A stretch of 64,000 bases of DNA. Origin: a virus. Its lineage: Duplodnaviria > Caudoviricetes. The stretch covers positions 96,001-160,000 of the IMG/VR virus record IMGVR_UViG_3300014205_000002; one strand, given 5' to 3'. The translations under genes were made by a program, and so were the position numbers. The notes under the pieces were generated by a model. It was not told the origin of the DNA and made no database searches. It saw nothing but the letters and a program-made list of their open reading frames with translations. Of the stretch, positions 29,484 through 40,997 are shown in pieces (the stretch's first letter is position 1; each line of letters begins with the position of its first letter).

Positions 29484-30346
29484 CGGCACCACCCAGGCCC
29501 AAACGCACCACCAAAGACCTCAAGACCCGCTCGTGCGTACGAAGCTGGCAAGGCGCGCACGAGCTATACGAGGAAGAAGAGGGGAAATTCTTCCACACCA
29601 AGGAGTACATTTTCGGCGATCTGCCCGCCGCATCCCGGACCAAGGCCACCGAGGAATTCAACCAGCACCATGAGACCTGGGATGACCATGACACCGAGTA
29701 CCTGGTCGACTGGTTCAAGGAGCGTGCGGCCGAAGCTGGCTACGATGACGCAGACCTCGGCTACAGCGTCGGGTTCTGCCAGGGCGACCACGTCAACTTC
29801 CGCGGCTGCTCGGCCGACCACAAGAAGCTCGCCGCACGCCTGCTGCCCTTCCAAGCCCAGCATGCCGAGGCGCTCGTCAGCTGGCACGGCGAGGATCTCT
29901 GGGAGATGATCGAGCTGGAGTTCGATTATTCGTCGCGCGGCGGAGATCCCCGCGTCAGCGGCAGCGGCATCCAGGAGCGGGTACTCGTGGGCGCGCGTCT
30001 CAGCTACCTGACCGACGGTCACGACGCCGTAGAGACCAAGGCCCTGATCATCCCCGCGCCAGACGAGCTGGAGGAGGGGCTCCTGGAGGGCGACGAGATC
30101 GATCGCTACGAGACCGACATGGGTCGTCTCGTACGCTACGCCGGCGTTCAGGTCGGCGATTACTGCGGGGCCTTTGCTGAGGATCTGGCCGATGCGATCG
30201 AGGCGGACATGCGGGATCTGGCCCATGACTTCTACCGCGAATTCAGCGACGCGATCCTGGAAGCGGGATCCGAGCGGGCGATCGCGGAGCGGCTCGCAGA
30301 CGACGACTTCCTCACGTTCCGGCGCGACGGCACGCTGATCAGGTAG
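29474..30346 (+). CDS. acidic hypothetical protein
   Basis: AAGGAGG RBS; YSVGFCQGDHVNF. Confidence 0.8.
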   Translation: MSVTAPPRPKRTTKDLKTRSCVRSWQGAHELYEEEEGKFFHTKEYIFGDLPAASRTKATEEFNQHHETWDDHDTEYLVDWFKERAAEAGYDDADLGYSVGFCQGDHVNFRGCSADHKKLAARLLPFQAQHAEALVSWHGEDLWEMIELEFDYSSRGGDPRVSGSGIQERVLVGARLSYLTDGHDAVETKALIIPAPDELEEGLLEGDEIDRYETDMGRLVRYAGVQVGDYCGAFAEDLADAIEADMRDLAHDFYREFSDAILEAGSERAIAERLADDDFLTFRRDGTLIR

Positions 30347-30397
30347 CTTGATGCCCTGGGGCGGGGCGGTGTATGGTCATGGACGGAGGCTCCGCTT

Positions 30398-30976
30398 ATG
30401 CACCCCCTTCCCCACCTGGCCTTTTACGGGCCTCCGGGGGCCGGCAAGTCCGCCATCGCGAATGCGCTGGTGAGCGAGTTCGGCTACCGGCGTTTCTCTC
30501 TGCGCGGTATGACGATGGAACTCTCGCGACTCATGGTCGACCGCAAGCTCGATCGCGGCCGCGACTTTGAGATGATCCGCCGGCTGCGCCAGGCGATGTG
30601 CGACCCCTACTTCGGGGGTAGCCCGACATTCTGGATCGAGCGCCTCGACGATCGAATCGCCGAGGCCGACTGGATGCGCCCCGTGGTGATCGATGATGTC
30701 GAGACCGTCGCCGAGGCCGAGTGGCTCAAACACCATGAGGGCGTACTGGTCGTACGGGTCGACACCGACATCGAAGAGTGCATGCGGCGGGTGCGGGGCT
30801 GGGCGAACGGCATCATGCAAGCCAGTTGGTTTGCCGTCGAGGACTATGCGGCGATCGCCCCCGACGACCAGATACCTGGGGTCGGCGACATCCACACGAA
30901 CATCCGCGGGCTGATCGCCAACAATCGACAAACGGCCGGATTCCAGGAGCTGGTTTTGGAGGAACGGATCGCATGA
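30398..30976 (+). CDS. deoxynucleoside monophosphate kinase-like P-loop protein
   Basis: GPPGAGKS; FW...VVIDDV...EAEWLK...VVRV. Confidence 0.75.
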   Translation: MHPLPHLAFYGPPGAGKSAIANALVSEFGYRRFSLRGMTMELSRLMVDRKLDRGRDFEMIRRLRQAMCDPYFGGSPTFWIERLDDRIAEADWMRPVVIDDVETVAEAEWLKHHEGVLVVRVDTDIEECMRRVRGWANGIMQASWFAVEDYAAIAPDDQIPGVGDIHTNIRGLIANNRQTAGFQELVLEERIA

Positions 30977-31485
30977 TTAAACGAACGAGCGGCATGATCG
31001 ATCCGCGCTTCGTCAAGAAGGCGCTGGCCGACATCCATTATGAGGCTGTACTCGGCCCCGTCGAGAAGACACTGCTCTCGCCGGCCCTCTCACAGGGCCG
31101 CTACCACCTTCACCAGCACCAGGCCGTCGACGACTGGGCTTTCTACTCGGGGCACCTGAACTTCGGCGCGGAGATGCCGATCCTCGCAACCGCAGGCCCC
31201 GTCCAGCCTGCGGACAAGAGTCAGGATCCCCTGATCATTCTCGATATCTTCATGAGCGAGGTCGTCTGCAAGGGCACAGGCCCGCGGGACGGGGTGGTCA
31301 TCGAGCTGCCCGACGCAACCAGAACGCGCTACGAGATGCTCCGGCAGCCCCTGGAGGACGGCCGCCATCTCTGGTGGATCCAGCGGGTCGAGACCGAACA
31401 GGAACTCGAACGCAGGAAATTCTTTCAGTATGTGTTCAGGCACACAGATCCCAGCGGCGATCCACCCATCGCCGGGTTAATTTAA
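30973..31485 (+). CDS. hypothetical protein
   Basis: GGAGG RBS; ATGA overlap. Confidence 0.75.
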   Translation: MIKRTSGMIDPRFVKKALADIHYEAVLGPVEKTLLSPALSQGRYHLHQHQAVDDWAFYSGHLNFGAEMPILATAGPVQPADKSQDPLIILDIFMSEVVCKGTGPRDGVVIELPDATRTRYEMLRQPLEDGRHLWWIQRVETEQELERRKFFQYVFRHTDPSGDPPIAGLI

Positions 31486-31490
31486 ATTTA

Positions 31491-31730
31491 ACATGATGGT
31501 TGGCGGCCAGGATCCAATAGGCCTGGAGGGCCATGTCCGAACACATGTTCGCCATGCCAACCGTTGTCAGTCTTCGCAGCCATGGGTTATTGTGGATCAG
31601 GCTTATTGGTCCTACCAACGCCTCCAGATCGGAAGATCCGCAGGTAGAGCCGATCCACAAACCCGGCACCCCGGCAGGGTCCGGGTCTTGGCCGCATCGG
31701 TAGGGCCCAGAAGGAGATCTCGGATGCACG
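31491..31730 (+). ncRNA. candidate pseudoknotted structured RNA
   Basis: Stems 31493-504/31556-567 (3 G-U), 31590-598/31652-660, GATC-GGAA-GATC tetraloop, loop-loop pairing CCAATA31514/TATTGG31604. Confidence 0.55.
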
Positions 31731-31748
31731 ACTAGCACCCAAAACGAC

Positions 31749-31783
31749 CAAAAAGAAAGAGATCGGCTGGCCGGCCGATCTCC
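31749..31783 (-). terminator. Rho-independent terminator on the - strand
   Basis: GAGATCGGC-N6-GCCGATCTC hairpin followed on the - strand by TTTCTTTTT. Confidence 0.8.
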
Positions 31784-31821
31784 CTCAAGTCTGTCTCGCG
31801 CCCACGCTCGACCTCACAAGG
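31749..31821 (-). ncRNA. predicted ~70-nt counter-transcribed small RNA upstream of the initiator
   Basis: Bounded by a - strand sigma70-like promoter and a - strand terminator; no ORF. Confidence 0.6.
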
Positions 31822-31826
31822 ACCCG

Positions 31827-31855
31827 ATCGTATCACGCGAGGCAGGCTCCGTCAA
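31827..31855 (-). promoter_or_regulatory. sigma70-like promoter TTGACG-N17-TACGAT with extended -10 TG
   Basis: + strand CGTCAA 31850-855, ATCGTA 31827-832, 17-nt spacer. Confidence 0.7.
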
Positions 31856-32040
31856 CGTGCAAATGCGCATGTTAGGAAGGACGCTCTCGTGACGATCGTG
31901 CCATCTGTGGGGGCCCCGAGGGGCGGCCCCTCTGTCTGGTCGGAGCAATCCGGCTGCCGCGAGGATCGCGCATGATCCGCCCGAGCAGCTCCGGATCACC
32001 CAGCGGCGAGATCGTCGAGTACAAGCCAAGGGAAACCAGG

Positions 32041-33033
32041 ATGGCGTGGCGGTTCAAGGCGGTCAAAAGAGACGTCTTTGAGGCGCTCTGCGATCCGCGA
32101 TTCAACCTGTCTAACCAGGAGTACCTGATCGTCCTCAACGTCTACCGATCCCAGCGGGAGGTCACGTTGGAGAACGGACGGACGGATCTGGGCGCGGGCG
32201 TCTCCGCCTACGCCATCGCCAAGCTCGTCAAGCGCGACTACAGCAACGTGAAGCTGGCGATCATCAGCCTGGTGGAGCGCGGCATCCTCATGCGCGACGG
32301 CGACACACTTCGCGTCAACGCGGAGTGCGATCAATGGCGCGCCGGCGAGACGGGTTCGAAAAAGCGTTCAGGCGGAAAACCAAAGCCCCCCATGGGGGTT
32401 TCTGGTACCCCTATGGGGGTTTCCGAGACCCCCCTTAAACAGGGGTTCACTGAACCCCCAGGGGGTTTGAGGAACCCCCAAAACAGGGGTGCGACAAACC
32501 CCTATGTGGGGGTTTCCCACACCCCTGTCGGCGACGGGAATCCAGCGCCAGACGAGGAACACAGCCCCCCTATAGATCATGAGATTAGAACCATGAGATC
32601 CATAAATAAAGAGAATACTGATCTCTCTGAGGAGGTTTCGGGCGAGGGTTGTCCGCCGGATACGCGAGAGGCGGCAGTCAATGACGCCGTGGCGGCCTTC
32701 GCCGCCGGCGGCTACCAGATCGCGGGCGTGGCGACGTTGGCCTTCCGGGGTCAGGTCGAGAAGCTGCTCGCCAAGAATGTGACTGACTACGGCGACCCTG
32801 AGTACCTGCGCCGCTTCGTTATCCCGGCGATCGAGGGGATCCCTGGCAACTACCGCGCGGCGTACCCGGACTGGATCGACCAGCTCCACTTTTGCCTGTC
32901 CAAGAGCCGCGGAGCCGGATTCTACGTCGACATCTGGACCAAGAAGAAGCCAGGAATGTCTGCGGTTAGCGAGTTCGACGGTTTTGAGGGCTCTCGGGTC
33001 GTCGACCTGGCAGCTCTGATGGATGCCGACTGA
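32041..33033 (+). CDS. phage replication initiator (lambda O-like wHTH)
   Basis: N-terminal wHTH (LSNQEYLIVL...VSAYAIAKLVKRDYSNVKLAIISLVERGIL), internal iterons, followed by a DnaC-like gene. Confidence 0.8.
   Translation: MAWRFKAVKRDVFEALCDPRFNLSNQEYLIVLNVYRSQREVTLENGRTDLGAGVSAYAIAKLVKRDYSNVKLAIISLVERGILMRDGDTLRVNAECDQWRAGETGSKKRSGGKPKPPMGVSGTPMGVSETPLKQGFTEPPGGLRNPQNRGATNPYVGVSHTPVGDGNPAPDEEHSPPIDHEIRTMRSINKENTDLSEEVSGEGCPPDTREAAVNDAVAAFAAGGYQIAGVATLAFRGQVEKLLAKNVTDYGDPEYLRRFVIPAIEGIPGNYRAAYPDWIDQLHFCLSKSRGAGFYVDIWTKKKPGMSAVSEFDGFEGSRVVDLAALMDAD
32395..32525. repeat. six iterons GGGGT-N7-ACCCC (putative origin)
   Basis: Units start at 32395, 32416, 32442, 32462, 32486, 32509; AT-rich tract follows at about 32571-32625. 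Confidence 0.85.
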
Positions 33034-33914
33034 TGGACGAAGCCGATCTTCCCCGAACAGCCCGTTCAATGGGGCATTCAAGCGATCTTTTGAAGCTCGG
33101 GAAGCTAATCCCGGCGCTCCAGTCCAGAGGAGAGATCCCCGGCCAGGATCCGCGAGCCTGGCGCTACCACGCCTTCAAGGCATTGATGGACGCCTGTAAG
33201 GCCGGTTGCGAGTCTTGTGGGCCCAGGCTCGACGGATGGCTCGTGCTGGAGAGCCGGGATCGGATGCCCTGTGAGCGCAAGTCTATCCAGTGCCCCGTTG
33301 GTCGTCGGGACTACGTGCGAAACTGCCACAAGTTCCTGGAGACGCTGGGCTTCGGCGGGGATCAGGCGATGGCGTGCTTCCTGCGCGAGAACGCCGACGC
33401 CGACGGCTACGTGCTGGGGGATCCGCTCACGCACTTCGGCTTCGTGCTCGACGAGTGCTCGGGGCCAGCCAAGACCTACGCCTTTGAGGACTTCACGAAG
33501 AAGCGCAACCTGATCCTGGCTGGCTCGACGGGTCCTGGTAAGACCTACTCGGCGCTCGCGGTGATGGCCCACTTGAAGGTTGAGCTGGGTATTGAGAACC
33601 AGATGTTCGTGAAGGCCGAGCAGCTGCTCGACGATTACATGACCGACAAAATGCGCGAGACGTTCGGGCAGGCGATGCGCACACGCTTCTTGGTGCTCGA
33701 CGATCTCGGCACGGAGTTGCCGAGCCCGCGAAACGAAAAGAACCTGTACTCGCTGATCGACGCGAGGTTGAGCGCGAACCTGCCGACGCTCGCCACGCTC
33801 AACATGTCCGCCGTTGACTTCGTGAAGCGCTACACGGACAAGCGGCTCCAGGATCGCTTCAAGCTCTACAAGTTCGTTGAGACGTCCCTGAAAAGCAAGA
33901 GGCGGGCACGGTGA
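33033..33914 (+). CDS. DnaC/IstB-like helicase-loader ATPase
   Basis: LAGSTGPGKT, LVLDDLGTE, LIDAR...PTLATLN, RLQDR; N-terminal Cys. Confidence 0.88.
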   Translation: MDEADLPRTARSMGHSSDLLKLGKLIPALQSRGEIPGQDPRAWRYHAFKALMDACKAGCESCGPRLDGWLVLESRDRMPCERKSIQCPVGRRDYVRNCHKFLETLGFGGDQAMACFLRENADADGYVLGDPLTHFGFVLDECSGPAKTYAFEDFTKKRNLILAGSTGPGKTYSALAVMAHLKVELGIENQMFVKAEQLLDDYMTDKMRETFGQAMRTRFLVLDDLGTELPSPRNEKNLYSLIDARLSANLPTLATLNMSAVDFVKRYTDKRLQDRFKLYKFVETSLKSKRRAR

Positions 33915-34627
33915 CGCTTGCTCTGACGGTTGCGTTGTCTGTCGCGATCGTCTATGGGATGATGCTGCGGTTGCTCGCAGTGTCCGACGGTCTGAGCCGG
34001 ACGACACCGAGACCCATATCGCGAGTCAGCGCGGATCCAAGAGGCACCCCAGTGGGATTGCATATCACGGCGATCGTCGGCCCGATGTTCAGCGCGAAGA
34101 CGACCACGCTGGCGCGCATCATCAGCGCCTGTGGCGACCCGTCGAGGGCGGTATTCAAGCACCGGAAGGATGGTCGGACCAGTGGGTCGCTGAGCAGCCA
34201 TGACGCGACCCTCAGTGATACCATCCAGGCGACACCGATCCGCAGCCTGCATGAGGTGGCGGAGTACGTCGACGCCCAGCGCACGCAGTGGGTCTACATC
34301 GACGAAATTCAATGGTTCGAGCGGGACGACGCGGCCTCGGCGATCGCGCGCATGGCCTGCTATGCCAGACCTCGCAACCTGGTGGTCGCGGGGCTCGATC
34401 TCGACTTCCGCGGCGAGGAGTTTCCGACCACCCGCCTGTTCATGCAGCGCGCGAACGATCGCATCTGCCTGCTGGCGGTGTGCGCATGCTGCGGGGCTCC
34501 CGCGCCCATGAGCTACCTGCGCGCGGTGGTCACGGGCACAGAGGGCCCCGTGGGGGGAGCCGACCAGTACGAGCCGCGCTGCGTGGAGTGCCATGCCGCC
34601 GGAGTCACCCAGAAGGAAAATTCATGA
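33911..34627 (+). CDS. tdk: thymidine kinase (alternative start GTG 34052)
   Basis: GPMFSAKTT, IDEIQWF, VAGLDLDFRGEEF, CxxC...VGGADQYEPRCVECH. Confidence 0.93.
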   Translation: MTLALTVALSVAIVYGMMLRLLAVSDGLSRTTPRPISRVSADPRGTPVGLHITAIVGPMFSAKTTTLARIISACGDPSRAVFKHRKDGRTSGSLSSHDATLSDTIQATPIRSLHEVAEYVDAQRTQWVYIDEIQWFERDDAASAIARMACYARPRNLVVAGLDLDFRGEEFPTTRLFMQRANDRICLLAVCACCGAPAPMSYLRAVVTGTEGPVGGADQYEPRCVECHAAGVTQKENS

Positions 34628-35169
34628 TCACGATCGACCAAGACGCCGTACGCCGGGCGGTGAGGCAGCTGCTCGGTACGCCCGAGGAGCCGGGTCCGAC
34701 CTCGGCGGCGGAGCTGGTGGAAGCCACCGGCGGCACCATTGCCGACATCGAGGCGGGTCTACTAGGCGCACCTTTCCGGGCGGAGTTAGTGGGTGGCCTG
34801 ATCGGCGCGCTCGGCAGCTCGCCGACAGCGTTCGTGCGGGCGGCCGACGGCTACGCGATCCTGCCAGACGCGACCATCGATCGGTTCGGCGAGTCCCAGG
34901 CACAGCTGAGCGAGGCGCGCGCGGCGAACGCGCAGCTGATGTCCGAAGTGGGTAAGCACGTCTTGGAGGCCGAGGCGCAAGCACGCGAGATCGCCGCCCT
35001 CCAGACGCAGCTCAAGCTAGAGCAGGCCCAGCGCGCGGCCTACGAGAGCCAAAACCGCCTCCTGGAAGGCTTCATCAAGGAGGATCAGAAGCTCAAGGCG
35101 GAATGGCTGGAACGCAGCGAGGCGCGTGCGCGGGCCCCCTGGTACCAGCGCATCTGGTGGGCACTCTGA
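34624..35169 (+). CDS. HTH-like plus coiled-coil protein with amphipathic Trp-rich tail
   Basis: AAGGA RBS; coiled coil; C-terminal RAPWYQRIWWAL. Confidence 0.75.
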   Translation: MITIDQDAVRRAVRQLLGTPEEPGPTSAAELVEATGGTIADIEAGLLGAPFRAELVGGLIGALGSSPTAFVRAADGYAILPDATIDRFGESQAQLSEARAANAQLMSEVGKHVLEAEAQAREIAALQTQLKLEQAQRAAYESQNRLLEGFIKEDQKLKAEWLERSEARARAPWYQRIWWAL

Positions 35170-35306
35170 TGCGGGACTGCCAGACCTGCCCGAGGCGGGC
35201 GTGTTGCGATCTTCTGGTGTGCCTGATCGACACACGGATGCCGCCCCCGCGCTATGAGCCGACCGTATTGGTCGGACCAACAGGCACTACTCCCGTTTCG
35301 GCGTAA
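35169..35306 (+). CDS. small Cys-rich peptide
   Basis: TGATG overlap; CQTCPRRACC. Confidence 0.45.
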   Translation: MRDCQTCPRRACCDLLVCLIDTRMPPPRYEPTVLVGPTGTTPVSA

Positions 35307-35325
35307 GCCTCACGGCGACTCACAC

Positions 35326-35354
35326 AGGGGGCCCATGTGGCCCCCTTTTCGTTT
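35326..35354 (+). terminator. Rho-independent terminator
   Basis: AGGGGGCC-catgt-GGCCCCCT followed by TTTCGTTT. Confidence 0.75.
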
Positions 35355-35381
35355 GACCCCCAGGCGCAGGGCTGGTACAAC
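35353..35381 (+). promoter_or_regulatory. sigma70-like promoter TTGACC-N17-TACAAC with extended -10 TG
   Basis: TTGACC 35353-358, TG 35373-374, TACAAC 35376-381. Confidence 0.6.
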
Positions 35382-35387
35382 CGAAGC

Positions 35388-35655
35388 GTGGGGTTCCAAG
35401 ACTAAAGGAGCCCCGTGGGGCTCCTTCGATCCGGTGGCGCTCTGAACCCTGGTACCTGGGTGGAGCACCCCCCAAAAGGAGGCTCCTCCTAGAATTCCAG
35501 TCTCACATGGAGGCTGGTGGAGCCGGCCCTTGGCTCGCAGCGAGGACGATTCCCTGGACATTCCCAACCGCTTGACCGGAGTCCTGCGGTCGTTCCTGTC
35601 GCCGGGTGACCGGGCTCGGGAGCGAGGTTGCCTTGCGGCAAGGTCAGTATAGCAG
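35388..35655 (+). ncRNA. candidate structured leader or ncRNA
   Basis: Chain of hairpins (AAGGAGCCC/GGGCTCCTT, GGGTTC/GAACCC, CCAGTCTC/GAGGCTGG, GAGCC/GGCTC, CCTTG/CAAGG); no convincing ORF. Confidence 0.4.
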
Positions 35656-35667
35656 AGGAGGATTACG

Positions 35668-36432
35668 ATGTCGTCAGCCACGACAAGCCAGGATCCCCAG
35701 CCGGAGCTGGGGACGAAGATCTGTACGAAGTGCAACACGCCGAAGTCGGTCGACTCGTTCAACTTCCGCAACAAAAAGAAGCGACTGCGCCAGAGTTGGT
35801 GCCGGATCTGTCAGCACAGCTCCAAGGGGTTGGTTCCGATCCATCCCAGCGATCACCAGATCCAGGACCAGTTTGCGCGGTTCGGCGATATCCAGATGCC
35901 GTCACCCAGCGATCTGATCGCCACACTAGCGGCCAATGCCGCCGAACAGGTAGCCGGCCCAGGGCCGCGTGTAGCGCCGCAGCCGGCAGTCGTTCATGCC
36001 GCTCCGCCGGCGGCCGTCATCACAGCGCCTGAGCCGTCCGAATCAAGCGAACCGCCGGTAATGGAGCGCGAGAGCGCGCTGCTGATGCTCGCGGACAAGC
36101 TCGTTGCGGCAACGGAGCGCGCCGCCCGGGCGGAGGCCCAGCTGGATGCCGCATTCAAACAGGTCGAGGTCTACCGCGCTCAGCTGGCGAGTGCCCAAAG
36201 AGCGGCAGAACTTGAGGCTCGCATCGTGAAGCTCGGTGAAGACGTGGGAACCTGGCAGCAGCTGGCCGAGGGTCATGATCTCGACATGCAGAAGCTGCGC
36301 GACGAGAATGTCCGACTCCAGAAAGAACTCACCGAGGCGAAGAAGCCCCCAACCCAGGTGGCGATCGTGCGTACGTACAGCGACGAGGAAAAGAGGCGGC
36401 TCGGCCCTCTCGGCGTCCCGGTCGGGAGTTGA
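35668..36432 (+). CDS. Zn-ribbon plus coiled-coil protein
   Basis: GAGGAGG RBS; KICTKC..K...F...SWCRIC; long heptad region. Confidence 0.8.
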   Translation: MSSATTSQDPQPELGTKICTKCNTPKSVDSFNFRNKKKRLRQSWCRICQHSSKGLVPIHPSDHQIQDQFARFGDIQMPSPSDLIATLAANAAEQVAGPGPRVAPQPAVVHAAPPAAVITAPEPSESSEPPVMERESALLMLADKLVAATERAARAEAQLDAAFKQVEVYRAQLASAQRAAELEARIVKLGEDVGTWQQLAEGHDLDMQKLRDENVRLQKELTEAKKPPTQVAIVRTYSDEEKRRLGPLGVPVGS

Positions 36433-38093: not shown

Positions 38094-38392
38094 ACGCGCA
38101 CCAACGTCGCCTGGCGCGCCGCACCGCTTTGCGCTGGCACAGAGAGGCGGAGCGCTGCTATCAGGCTATGCGCAAGATGCGGGCCACCTTCTCCGCGAGG
38201 GCCCTAATGGCTGGTCAGCTGAGTCTGTCGCAGGCCGAGGTGGATCGCCTCCGGGACGTGTTTGAGGGCGGGCCGGTGAGGAGCGTCGACTTCGGTACGG
38301 ACGCCGGCTTCTGTGAGCTCGGGGTGCGGGCCCAGCCGGGCGGCGGCTATGTGGTCGTCTCGGAGAAGCGCACCCCGCCGGAGGGCCCATGA
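38090..38392 (+). CDS. hypothetical protein
   Basis: GTGA overlap. Confidence 0.6.
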   Translation: MNAHQRRLARRTALRWHREAERCYQAMRKMRATFSARALMAGQLSLSQAEVDRLRDVFEGGPVRSVDFGTDAGFCELGVRAQPGGGYVVVSEKRTPPEGP

Positions 38393-38625
38393 CCGAAGCC
38401 ACGAAGCCGCCGGCGGGCTATTACTTCCTGATCGCCTCGGGCAGTCGAACGGCGCACCTCGGTCCCCGCACCCATGACGACAGCCTGTGGGTGCCGATCT
38501 GCGAGGCGGATCTGCCCAGCAGGGCGGCCCGACGCGGCGAGGACTGGTGTACGCTGGACGAGATCTGGAGTCGCCCGCCATGCCAGCGCTGCGCGAAGAT
38601 TGCAGCCAAGAAGGAGAGCCCATGA
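38389..38625 (+). CDS. small Zn-binding protein
   Basis: H...C...CQRC; GGAGG RBS. Confidence 0.7.
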   Translation: MTEATKPPAGYYFLIASGSRTAHLGPRTHDDSLWVPICEADLPSRAARRGEDWCTLDEIWSRPPCQRCAKIAAKKESP

Positions 38626-39770
38626 CCAAGAGTTGGCTCACCGATCCCTTACCACCGCAGCAGGAGCGCATGCGGCTCTTTTACGCGGGGGCCAAGCCCT
38701 GCTACGCCAACCACCTCGCAGGCCACGACACGCTCGTGAGCTACTTTGAGGAACAGCAGCTCCGCATCGTCGACGACATGATCGCCGGCGCGGCCAACCC
38801 GCCCGGCGCGGTGATCATCGACTGCGGGGCTTACTCCGCCTGGAAGCAGGCCTACAAGCCCGAGGTCAAGCCGATCGATCTGGATGCCTACATCCCCTAC
38901 TGCCTGCGGGCGGTAGAGGGCCTCGGGCGCGGGCTCGTGGCGGTAGTGGCGCTCGACGTGATCCCCGGCCGCTGGGTCGACAAGGGCACGTTCATCCCCC
39001 CATCGCCCGAGGAGGCGCACCGGGCGGTATGGGACACCATCCACAACACCATGGCGATGGTACGGGCGGGTGTACCCAAGCACAAGCTGATGCCGGTCTT
39101 CCACTTCGGCGATCCGCCCTGGGTGCTGGAGTTCTATGAGCGGGTCGGATTTGAACTGATCGGCCTGTCTGGCGCGAGTATCCAGGGCAAGCCGGAGATG
39201 GAGGAGTGGGTTGACGAGATGTTGGCGTGCTATCCCGAACAGCGCTTTCACTTGCTGGGGGTGACCGCGAAGTGGGCCTTCACCAAGCACGCCTGGAGCC
39301 TCGACTCGACGAGCTGGTTCAACTTCCAGCGCTTCGGTTTCAAGAAGAACCGGCACCTGCTCTACGGCCTGCGCGACAAGTTCTTCGCCCGCTGGCCGCG
39401 TACGAAGGAGATCCTCGACGACATCAGCGACGAGGGCCGCGACCTCAACGCCGGCCTCTGCCGGGAGATTGGCAAGGACTCGCTCGCGGACAGGCTGGGG
39501 GCGAGCAACCAGGATCGCTTTCACGAGGCTTTCCAGGTAGGCTGGCCAGAGCTGTCACGGGCGCTCGGCAGTTACGTCGACTTCGGCATGTTCGAGGGCG
39601 ACGACGAGGCCGATATGAAGGCCGCCTGGCAGCTCGCTCAGAACTACCTCGCGGACAAGTATCACAACGGCGAATGGGTTGAGCCCAGGTGGCTGGTGAT
39701 GCTGGACATCATTGAGATCGAAGATGTCCCCGCTTATCTCCAGCGATGGAACATGGAGGATGCCGCATGA
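38622..39770 (+). CDS. TGT/DpdA-like transglycosylase barrel (phage queuine tRNA-ribosyltransferase-like)
   Basis: IIDCGAYSAW, ALDVIPG, PVFHFGD, FHLLGV, SLDSTSW. Confidence 0.8.
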   Translation: MTKSWLTDPLPPQQERMRLFYAGAKPCYANHLAGHDTLVSYFEEQQLRIVDDMIAGAANPPGAVIIDCGAYSAWKQAYKPEVKPIDLDAYIPYCLRAVEGLGRGLVAVVALDVIPGRWVDKGTFIPPSPEEAHRAVWDTIHNTMAMVRAGVPKHKLMPVFHFGDPPWVLEFYERVGFELIGLSGASIQGKPEMEEWVDEMLACYPEQRFHLLGVTAKWAFTKHAWSLDSTSWFNFQRFGFKKNRHLLYGLRDKFFARWPRTKEILDDISDEGRDLNAGLCREIGKDSLADRLGASNQDRFHEAFQVGWPELSRALGSYVDFGMFEGDDEADMKAAWQLAQNYLADKYHNGEWVEPRWLVMLDIIEIEDVPAYLQRWNMEDAA

Positions 39771-40195
39771 CGCGCGGAATTGACCGACTGACAGCGATCG
39801 AGAATCGCCTCGCCAAGATCACGAGGTGGCCCTGGCGCACCCAGATCTTCTCCTGGCTCAACGCCCGGGTGCTCTGTTACTTCGATCGGAACAACTCCGG
39901 CGACCCCGTGGCCTGGCTCGATAACGACAAGGGCTACAAGCAGGTTGGCGGCTTCATCCGCTTCGGGGCCAACTGCTCAAATGCCGCGAACGATGCGACC
40001 TTCGTCGCGCATGCGCCCGCCGACATCTCGGACCTCTTGAAGGTTGCGAAGGCCGCCCGCGGCCTCATGGCGACGGTGGGCGAGTTCCCCGAGGACCCCA
40101 GCATCTGGGGCGAGGCGCTGGAGGCGCTCGATGTCACGCTCGAACGTCTGGATCCACCCCCGCCCAAGGAGAGCGTCTACCATGCTGATACCTGA
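39767..40195 (+). CDS. Ead/Ea22-like phage protein
   Basis: L..I..RLAKIT..PW...DATFVAHAPADI..LL. Confidence 0.65.
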   Translation: MTRGIDRLTAIENRLAKITRWPWRTQIFSWLNARVLCYFDRNNSGDPVAWLDNDKGYKQVGGFIRFGANCSNAANDATFVAHAPADISDLLKVAKAARGLMATVGEFPEDPSIWGEALEALDVTLERLDPPPPKESVYHADT

Positions 40196-40997
40196 TGCCA
40201 TTCCCGGCCTCATTGCGCGCGGGGCTCTGTTCGTGGTCAACCACAGCGGCGGAAAGGACAGTCAGGCCATGTTCGCCCTGCTTAAGCAGGTCGTACCGAA
40301 GGACCAGCTCCTTGTGCTCCATGCGATCCTGCCGGGTGTCGAGTGGGATGGCGTGATCGAGCACATTGAGGCGACGATCGGGGACGCGCCTTTGATCTTC
40401 GCCCAGTCGATCAAGACCTTCTGGCAGATGGTCGAGCACCGCCAGATGTTCCCCAGTCCCTCGAACCGCCAATGCACGAGCGACCTCAAGCGGGGCCCGA
40501 TCGAAAAGCAGATCCGGCATTACCTCTGGGAGAACCCGCGCTACGGCGGGCTGATCGTCAACTGCATGGGCATGCGCGCCGAGGAGAGTCCTGGGCGCAA
40601 GAAGCTCGTGCCGTTCGCCTTCGATCCCGGTAATTCCATGGCCGCGAGCGCCAAGGGCACCCGGCCTTCGCGCGAGTGGTACGAGTGGTTGCCGATCCAC
40701 GCGCTCTCGACCTGGGAGGTCTGGTGCGCGATCGCCGAGGCTGGACAGAAGCCACACTGGGCGTACTCGAAGGGGATGACCCGCCTCAGCTGCCAATTCT
40801 GTATCATGGCCTCCGACGGCGATCTCAAGACCGCCGCGACCCTGGCCCCCGACATGTACCAGCGGTACGCTCACGCCGAGCGCCGCATGGGCTTCACCCT
40901 GCGGATGTCGCGGGAGACGCTCGTCCAGGTGACGGGCATCCCCATCGACGAGTCCTATGTGCCTCCAAAGGAGCCTGACTATGTGCCTTCCCGGTAG
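40182..40997 (+). CDS. PAPS-reductase/DndC-like PP-loop protein
   Basis: HSGGKDS, RQCTSDLK, GMRAEES..R, PI..L...VW, HWAY..G..RLSCQFC. Confidence 0.9.
   Translation: MLIPDAIPGLIARGALFVVNHSGGKDSQAMFALLKQVVPKDQLLVLHAILPGVEWDGVIEHIEATIGDAPLIFAQSIKTFWQMVEHRQMFPSPSNRQCTSDLKRGPIEKQIRHYLWENPRYGGLIVNCMGMRAEESPGRKKLVPFAFDPGNSMAASAKGTRPSREWYEWLPIHALSTWEVWCAIAEAGQKPHWAYSKGMTRLSCQFCIMASDGDLKTAATLAPDMYQRYAHAERRMGFTLRMSRETLVQVTGIPIDESYVPPKEPDYVPSR

Follow-up and report, generated by a model that had tools for sequence, protein, structure and literature searches.

A predicted OOP-like antisense RNA upstream of the lambda-O-type replication initiator of a 208-kb phage

The non-coding DNA ahead of the replication initiator gene of a large phage raises the question of whether it holds a gene for a small antisense RNA and, if so, whether that RNA would belong with the counter-transcribed RNAs (ctRNAs) that set the copy number of plasmids or with the OOP RNA of phage lambda. 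The window, i.e., the whole stretch of DNA that was analysed (64,000 nt), represents bases 96001-160000 of a 208,264-bp IMG/VR virus record with 64% G+C and a 123-bp direct terminal repeat, which is rated complete. Phage DNA was found in one sequencing run only, the landfill metagenome DNA run X1, which is probably the source and which yielded one 75-kb contig identical to the phage with zero variants. Between window positions of about 20000 and 50000, nearly all genes are on the + strand, and the rightward block around the gap includes the replication and nucleotide-metabolism genes. The gap itself is 486 nt long (31486-31971) and is located between a 170-codon gene on the left and the initiator ORF on the right. 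Coding periodicity in third-position G+C is clear on both flanks and absent within the gap. The two small ORFs there, one of 80 aa (+ strand) and one of 100 aa (- strand), were rejected as genes on account of a junk-like translation and the absent coding periodicity. The flanking genes and the initiator module comprise the following features (window positions, as elsewhere unless stated).

30973-31485, + strand: upstream gene with no assigned function (no family match)
31455-31474, + strand: weak terminator-like hairpin at the end of the upstream gene (dG -9.7, poor T-run)
31972-33033, + strand: lambda-O-like replication initiator, 353 aa (profile matches)
32395-32525, no strand assigned: six perfect GGGGT-N7-ACCCC iterons inside the initiator ORF (pattern search)
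33033-33914, + strand: DnaC/IstB-like helicase loader, its start overlapping the initiator stop (profile matches)

The nucleotide composition of the gap is conspicuous. The tetranucleotide GATC is 3-fold over-represented in the whole genome (9.6 per kb), and its density peaks genome-wide in the pre-initiator gap, with 13 copies per 500 nt versus a mean of 4.8. The sequence GCGATCGC, known as the HIP1 palindrome of cyanobacteria, is present in the genome in 120 copies versus about 7 expected. The excess of GATC and GCGATCGC may hint at the nature of the host or at a methylation system.

Regarding the genes to the right of the gap, the initial annotation had proposed an initiator/loader pair of the lambda-O/DnaC type, and the profile searches bear this out. 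Matches of the initiator to the N-terminal domain of phage O proteins were both below the cut-off (TIGR01610, E 0.002; phrog_277, E 0.002); comparison of the initiator family profile with an O-like initiator profile using hhalign gave a probability of 96.8% and an E-value of 3e-10. The start codon at 31972 is supported by the residues before the second Met, which are conserved in a 54%-identical relative. The initiator family is rare, with seven members among 1.8 billion representatives. The closest relative (P0002, 54% identity) is encoded on a 43-kb Logan contig with a DnaC-like neighbour (P0010), and a 36%-identical cluster includes a member (P0017) on a 198-kb JGI contig. Searches of viral, metagenome and genome contig collections returned zero relatives of the initiator, the loader or SbcC, and searches of GenBank phages and of PLSDB for relatives were empty or trivial.

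Past the iterons, at about 32570-32620, lies an AT-rich tract, and the two together form the probable origin, to judge by their sequence. Cumulative GC skew of the genome has no turning point at the iteron origin. An O-like initiator, internal iterons and a DnaC-like loader mark the module, by its sequence, as a lambda-type replicon, i.e., an initiator with an internal origin, followed by a loader. At the protein level the iterons encode GV..TP repeats, and these are conserved in the relatives of the initiator. A search of IMG/VR for two adjacent GGGGT-N7-ACCCC units yielded nine loci, and six of the seven iteron-bearing ORFs tested were O-like or other rep initiators, one of them followed by a DnaC-like gene. 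The same iteron arms were seen within initiator ORFs at six loci (L005, L006, L008, L009, L010 and L011), which belong to unrelated phages with 32-69% G+C. The pattern suggests that GGGGT-N7-ACCCC represents one widespread type of initiator-iteron recognition, with iterons that encode GV..TP.

Within the gap, the following features were found on the - strand, opposite to the direction of the block.

31827-31855, - strand: sigma-70-like promoter TTGACG-N17-TACGAT with a TGn extended -10, the analogue of pO (9/12 matches)
31746-31786, - strand: intrinsic terminator, the analogue of tO, with a 13-bp stem (31786-31755) and a U-run (31754-31746) (motif scan, RNAfold)
31746-31820, - strand: predicted antisense RNA of about 67-75 nt (promoter/terminator geometry)

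The scan thus recovered both the promoter and the hairpin with U-tract that had been noticed initially; the description of the promoter as near-consensus was overstated, since its -10 hexamer TACGAT has only 4/6 consensus matches. The terminator hairpin begins 40 nt past the promoter, and its stem contains 7 G-C pairs, has a loop of 6 and is followed by UUUUUGG. A T-run flanks only one side of the hairpin; the element thus has a polarity, and it is only on the - strand that it can be read as a terminator. No credible - strand gene emerged from a crude gene call for the rest of the rightward block, over the roughly 18 kb from which leftward transcription could reach the terminator, and the promoter and terminator therefore make up a self-contained unit. 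From this unit an RNA of about 70 nt is predicted that would run antisense to the DNA ahead of the initiator gene, in line with the initial annotation. Judging from the -10, its 5' end would lie near 31820, and its 3' end would lie within the U-run (about 31750), some 265 nt from the upstream stop at 31485 and with no gene overlap. The predicted RNA is located 150-220 nt upstream of the initiator RBS, and its promoter 145 nt from the initiator AUG. When the predicted 77-nt RNA was folded with RNAfold, the terminator hairpin was present in both the MFE and the centroid structures; the RNA as a whole was not more stable than shuffles (z = -1.48).

The promoter belongs to the form TTGAC[CG]-N14-TGn-TAC[AG]A[TC], which occurs at two non-coding sites genome-wide, namely at the antisense promoter and at one other site, on the + strand at 35353, after a strong terminator and before the next operon. 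The latter site is located where a real promoter would be expected, and the two sites (n=2) lend weak support to use of the form as a promoter. Enrichment of TTGAC and of 7-mers in intergenic DNA revealed no phage-wide promoter motif. A palindrome, ATGCGCAT (31863-31870), immediately precedes the -35 of the - strand promoter and is possibly a regulator site.

The rarity of such a unit was assessed in the genome and in shuffled DNA. A genome-wide scan of both strands found 118 hairpin-plus-T-run sites, among which 31786-31746 ranks second (dG -20.7 kcal/mol). Only two other sites are of comparable form, at genome position 81358 (+) and window position 35327 (+), and both are situated where co-directional genes end, as a real terminator should be. 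As a control for chance, the gap 31486-31971 was subjected to 3000 dinucleotide shuffles: a terminator with a stem of at least 10 bp was present in 0.6% of them, a promoter match in 12%, and a promoter followed in order by a terminator in 2/3000 (0.07%). The real genome has two ordered promoter-terminator pairs only, both on the - strand and both within non-coding gaps of the rightward replication and nucleotide-metabolism block, facing against it, whereas the number of pairs expected by chance is about 0.04 over the 26 kb of non-coding DNA and about 0.3 over the whole genome including coding DNA. The promoter/terminator unit on the - strand exceeds chance.

The second ordered pair is located at 35398-35674 on the - strand, in the gap 35170-35667, and as a candidate unit (35674 to about 35398) it faces the next operon. 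Its promoter (ACGACA-17-TATACT with TG, 35674-35646) lies on the start of the gene 35668-36432, and its terminator is the hairpin GGAGCCCCACGGGGCUCC plus UUUAGUCUU at 35425-35406. The predicted antisense RNA of about 240 nt would almost exactly cover the leader from a + strand promoter at 35353-35381, and it folds with z = -3.49.

An antisense RNA in the gap could act on the initiator transcript if the two overlap. Regarding the + strand and the leader of the initiator, the following features were recorded.

31564-31593, + strand: candidate rightward promoter TTGTCA-18-TATTGT for the initiator leader (the sole + strand match of at least 8/12 in 31400-32000)
31590-31598 and 31652-31660, no strand assigned: perfect 9-nt inverted repeat TTGTGGATC / GATCCACAA around the -10 of the + strand promoter
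31607-31617, no strand assigned: one-mismatch copy TGGTCCTACCA of the dispersed palindrome TGGTCNGACCA, just past the + strand promoter
31909-31931, + strand: leader hairpin GGGGCC...GGCCCC followed by UCUGUCUGG, a poor U-run (RNA folding)
31937-31947, no strand assigned: one-mismatch copy TGGTCGGAGCA of the palindrome TGGTCNGACCA, 25 nt upstream of the initiator AUG
31953-31989, + strand: leader hairpin GCUGC...GCAGC enclosing GGAUC/GAUCC (centroid fold)

Because the gap's sole sigma-70-like + strand promoter (31564-31593) precedes the unit, a leader that starts there would likely overlap the antisense RNA, in keeping with the pairing first envisaged between the two transcripts. The inverted repeat TTGTGGATC/GATCCACAA is DnaA-box-like (TGATCCACA, 1 mismatch), and the gap contains two one-mismatch copies of TGGTCNGACCA versus about 0.02 expected; the inverted repeat and the palindrome copies suggest, by their sequence and position, a regulated promoter region. 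The folding of the + strand at 31905-32000 that had been reported initially was confirmed in so far as both hairpins are present, but the stretch folds no better than shuffles (z = +0.85). The hairpin at 31953-31989 pairs the SD GAGGA (31961-31965) and the start-codon AUG region. The hairpin at 31909-31931 was considered as an attenuator and rejected, its U-run being too poor for a terminator call. The whole gap of about 490 nt, taken as a + strand RNA, folds unusually well (z = -3.17). At 31710-31735, a strong SD (AAGGAG) is followed 7 nt later by an AUG that opens a three-codon mini-ORF, AUG CAC GAC UAG. The SD-like sequence GAAGGAGAUC (31710-31719) can pair with GAUCUCCCUC (31777-31786), which is the 3' arm of the terminator hairpin on the + strand, and this pairing is a possible alternative structure of the predicted leader.

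In lambda, the pO-oop-tO unit is located directly upstream of gene O (Olszewski et al. 2014, PMC3985674; Hayes et al. 2018, PMC5869508). Activity of pO lowers transcription from pR and affects replication and plasmid copy number, and a mutation of pO changes the copy number of lambda-derived plasmids (PMC3985674). OOP RNA terminates at tO and overlaps the end of cII by 52 bases; RNase III-dependent cleavage of the cII-O mRNA is described in literature cited in that source (PMC5869508). The older idea that oop serves as a replication primer was abandoned in lambda (PMC3985674). As a positive control, the same motif scan was applied to positions 38300-40400 of the lambda genome (J02459), where it reported pO as TTGAGT-17-CATAAT (9/12, with TG) and tO with a 12-bp stem, about 77 nt apart, i.e., an authentic unit with scores almost equal to those of the candidate and with the same spacing. 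The initial annotation had regarded ctRNA-type control of a lambda-O/DnaC-type module as an unusual combination; an antisense unit immediately ahead of an O-type initiator is instead the canonical arrangement in lambda (PMC3985674, PMC5869508).

The likeness extends over most of the arrangement. Lambda and, by prediction, this phage have a leftward sigma-70 promoter with an extended -10, a 17-nt spacer and 9/12 matches, a terminator stem of 12-13 bp and an RNA of 70-77 nt, and in both the unit opposes a rightward early operon directly upstream of an O-type initiator with an iteron origin, with a loader gene that overlaps the initiator's stop. The iterons lie 423-553 nt into the initiator ORF here versus 348-432 nt in lambda O, and about 540 bp separate the - strand promoter from the origin on its right, much as in lambda. 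The two units differ in that there is no sequence homology beyond the promoter and terminator motifs (a gapped pairwise alignment gave about 46% identity) and in that 145 nt separate the promoter from the initiator start downstream of it, whereas the promoter of lambda lies on the start. Unlike OOP, the predicted RNA covers untranslated leader only, with no cII-like gene; unlike lambda P, the loader is DnaC/IstB-like; and the six iterons are of another sequence, in a carrier that is a 208-kb phage. In a crude scan of seven distant phage loci that share this iteron type, no antisense promoter-terminator unit was seen to recur. At L009 an antisense promoter lies on the initiator start codon, and at L004 a strong antisense hairpin lies 400 nt upstream.

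On balance, the gap probably contains an OOP-like cis-antisense RNA gene that would damp rightward transcription and expression of the O-type replication module; the case is made by the quality of the motifs, by how rarely they arise in shuffled DNA and by how closely the layout follows that of lambda. The host-type (sigma-70) promoter at 31855-31827 would fire leftward, and the strong terminator would end the RNA at about 70 nt. Rightward transcription, whether it starts at the candidate promoter 31564-31593 or reads through from the upstream genes of the same direction, would have to cross the antisense unit before it reaches the initiator, the intragenic origin and the loader. Damping could take two routes that are known from lambda, namely interference between convergent promoters, and pairing of the antisense RNA with the leader at 31746-31820, which would thereby become open to attack by a double-strand RNase. 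In this way the unit would determine when, and how strongly, the initiator and loader are expressed and the origin is transcribed. We infer that the RNA is made and that it overlaps the leader, and each step of this scheme is to be read in the same conditional sense.

The main competitor, which we consider unlikely though deserving of real weight, is that no small RNA is made, the promoter match being due to chance and the hairpin with T-run serving another role, be it as an insulator against stray leftward transcription from the origin region, as an element for the folding or processing of the rightward leader RNA, or as a GATC-rich protein-binding palindrome. The frequency of promoter matches of such quality in the gap shuffles (12%) makes a fortuitous match conceivable. 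A role on the other strand agrees with the fold of the whole gap as + strand RNA, in which the hairpin forms too, and with the alternative pairing of the arm GAUCUCCCUC with the SD-like GAAGGAGAUC; a protein-binding palindrome would suit the part of the genome with the highest density of GATC. The polarity of the element, with its one-sided T-run, fits none of this well and points to a terminator on the - strand alone; a terminator implies transcription, and the promoter 40 nt upstream is the closest place from which this could plausibly come; the ordered pair is as rare in shuffles as stated above. Improbable is an action of the RNA in trans on phage or host messages, or as a primer of leftward DNA synthesis near the origin. 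A lambda-like distance of about 540 bp between the promoter and the origin on its right speaks for the primer, the notion given up for lambda itself (PMC3985674). Regarding action in trans, a duplex search of the 5' part of the RNA against all 216 translation-initiation regions of the phage found nothing beyond what shuffled RNAs gave, the best duplex (-45.2 kcal/mol) falling on a doubtful ORF and the shuffled minimum being -45.1.

The initial annotation had favoured a plasmid-style ctRNA that would set the copy number of a phage persisting as a plasmid prophage, and had pointed to partition genes and an integrase elsewhere in the genome as informative. This reading we regard as improbable. 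The unit does have the form of a ctRNA gene, i.e., like plasmid ctRNAs (those compared were repABC ctRNA RF00489, pT181, pMV158, pIP501, R1 CopA and ColE1 RNAI) the RNA predicted here would be short and constitutively made, would end in a hairpin and would be able to pair with the leader of the initiator mRNA, and the effect of a pO mutation on the copy number of lambda plasmids agrees with such a function (PMC3985674). Unlike the plasmid ctRNAs, it has no covariance-model match: Rfam, plasmid ctRNA families included, gave nothing at the gathering score in the window and nothing relevant at E-values up to 10 in 31650-31950. Its target lies far from the RBS (150-220 nt) and is followed by no convincing attenuator. 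A blastn comparison of 30000-35000 with the PLSDB plasmids found no similarity. Unlike ctRNA plasmids, the phage has no partition genes that could be found: the search of the complete genome gave no match to ParA (PF13614, PF01656), ParB (PF02195) or tubulin (PF00091), nor to ParM/StbA (PF06406), a search which matched no control genome either. The genome encodes one HTH_3 protein and one tyrosine recombinase.

G000:C1:171437-171874; locus L002 1459-2412, - strand: Xer-like tyrosine recombinase (profile match)

The recombinase has 317 aa, with a Phage_integrase domain and an N-terminal SAM-like domain, and its nearest models are XerC/XerD. It could serve phage integration or multimer resolution and does not decide the lifestyle; in the latter capacity it could resolve dimers of a plasmid prophage, as Cre does for P1. 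Taken together, the indications of a plasmid lifestyle are weak, and the antisense unit is by itself no sign of a phage-plasmid.

A broader scheme takes in both ordered pairs: antisense RNAs driven by the host RNA polymerase would brake the lambda-type replicon of a jumbo phage, either timing the hand-over from host to phage transcription or holding the copy number in a plasmid-like carrier state. We consider this scheme, too, improbable.

The OOP-like RNA that we prefer would, even if real, be by itself no demonstration of a plasmid lifestyle. If the RNA is real, the arrangement of two facing promoters and an antisense RNA at an O-type origin would not be confined to small temperate lambdoid phages, and the lambda scheme would extend to a 208-kb phage of a high-GC host. 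Promoter-down mutants would then provide a handle on the timing of replication of the phage, and the lambda scheme would appear as an old and portable part of this type of replicon.
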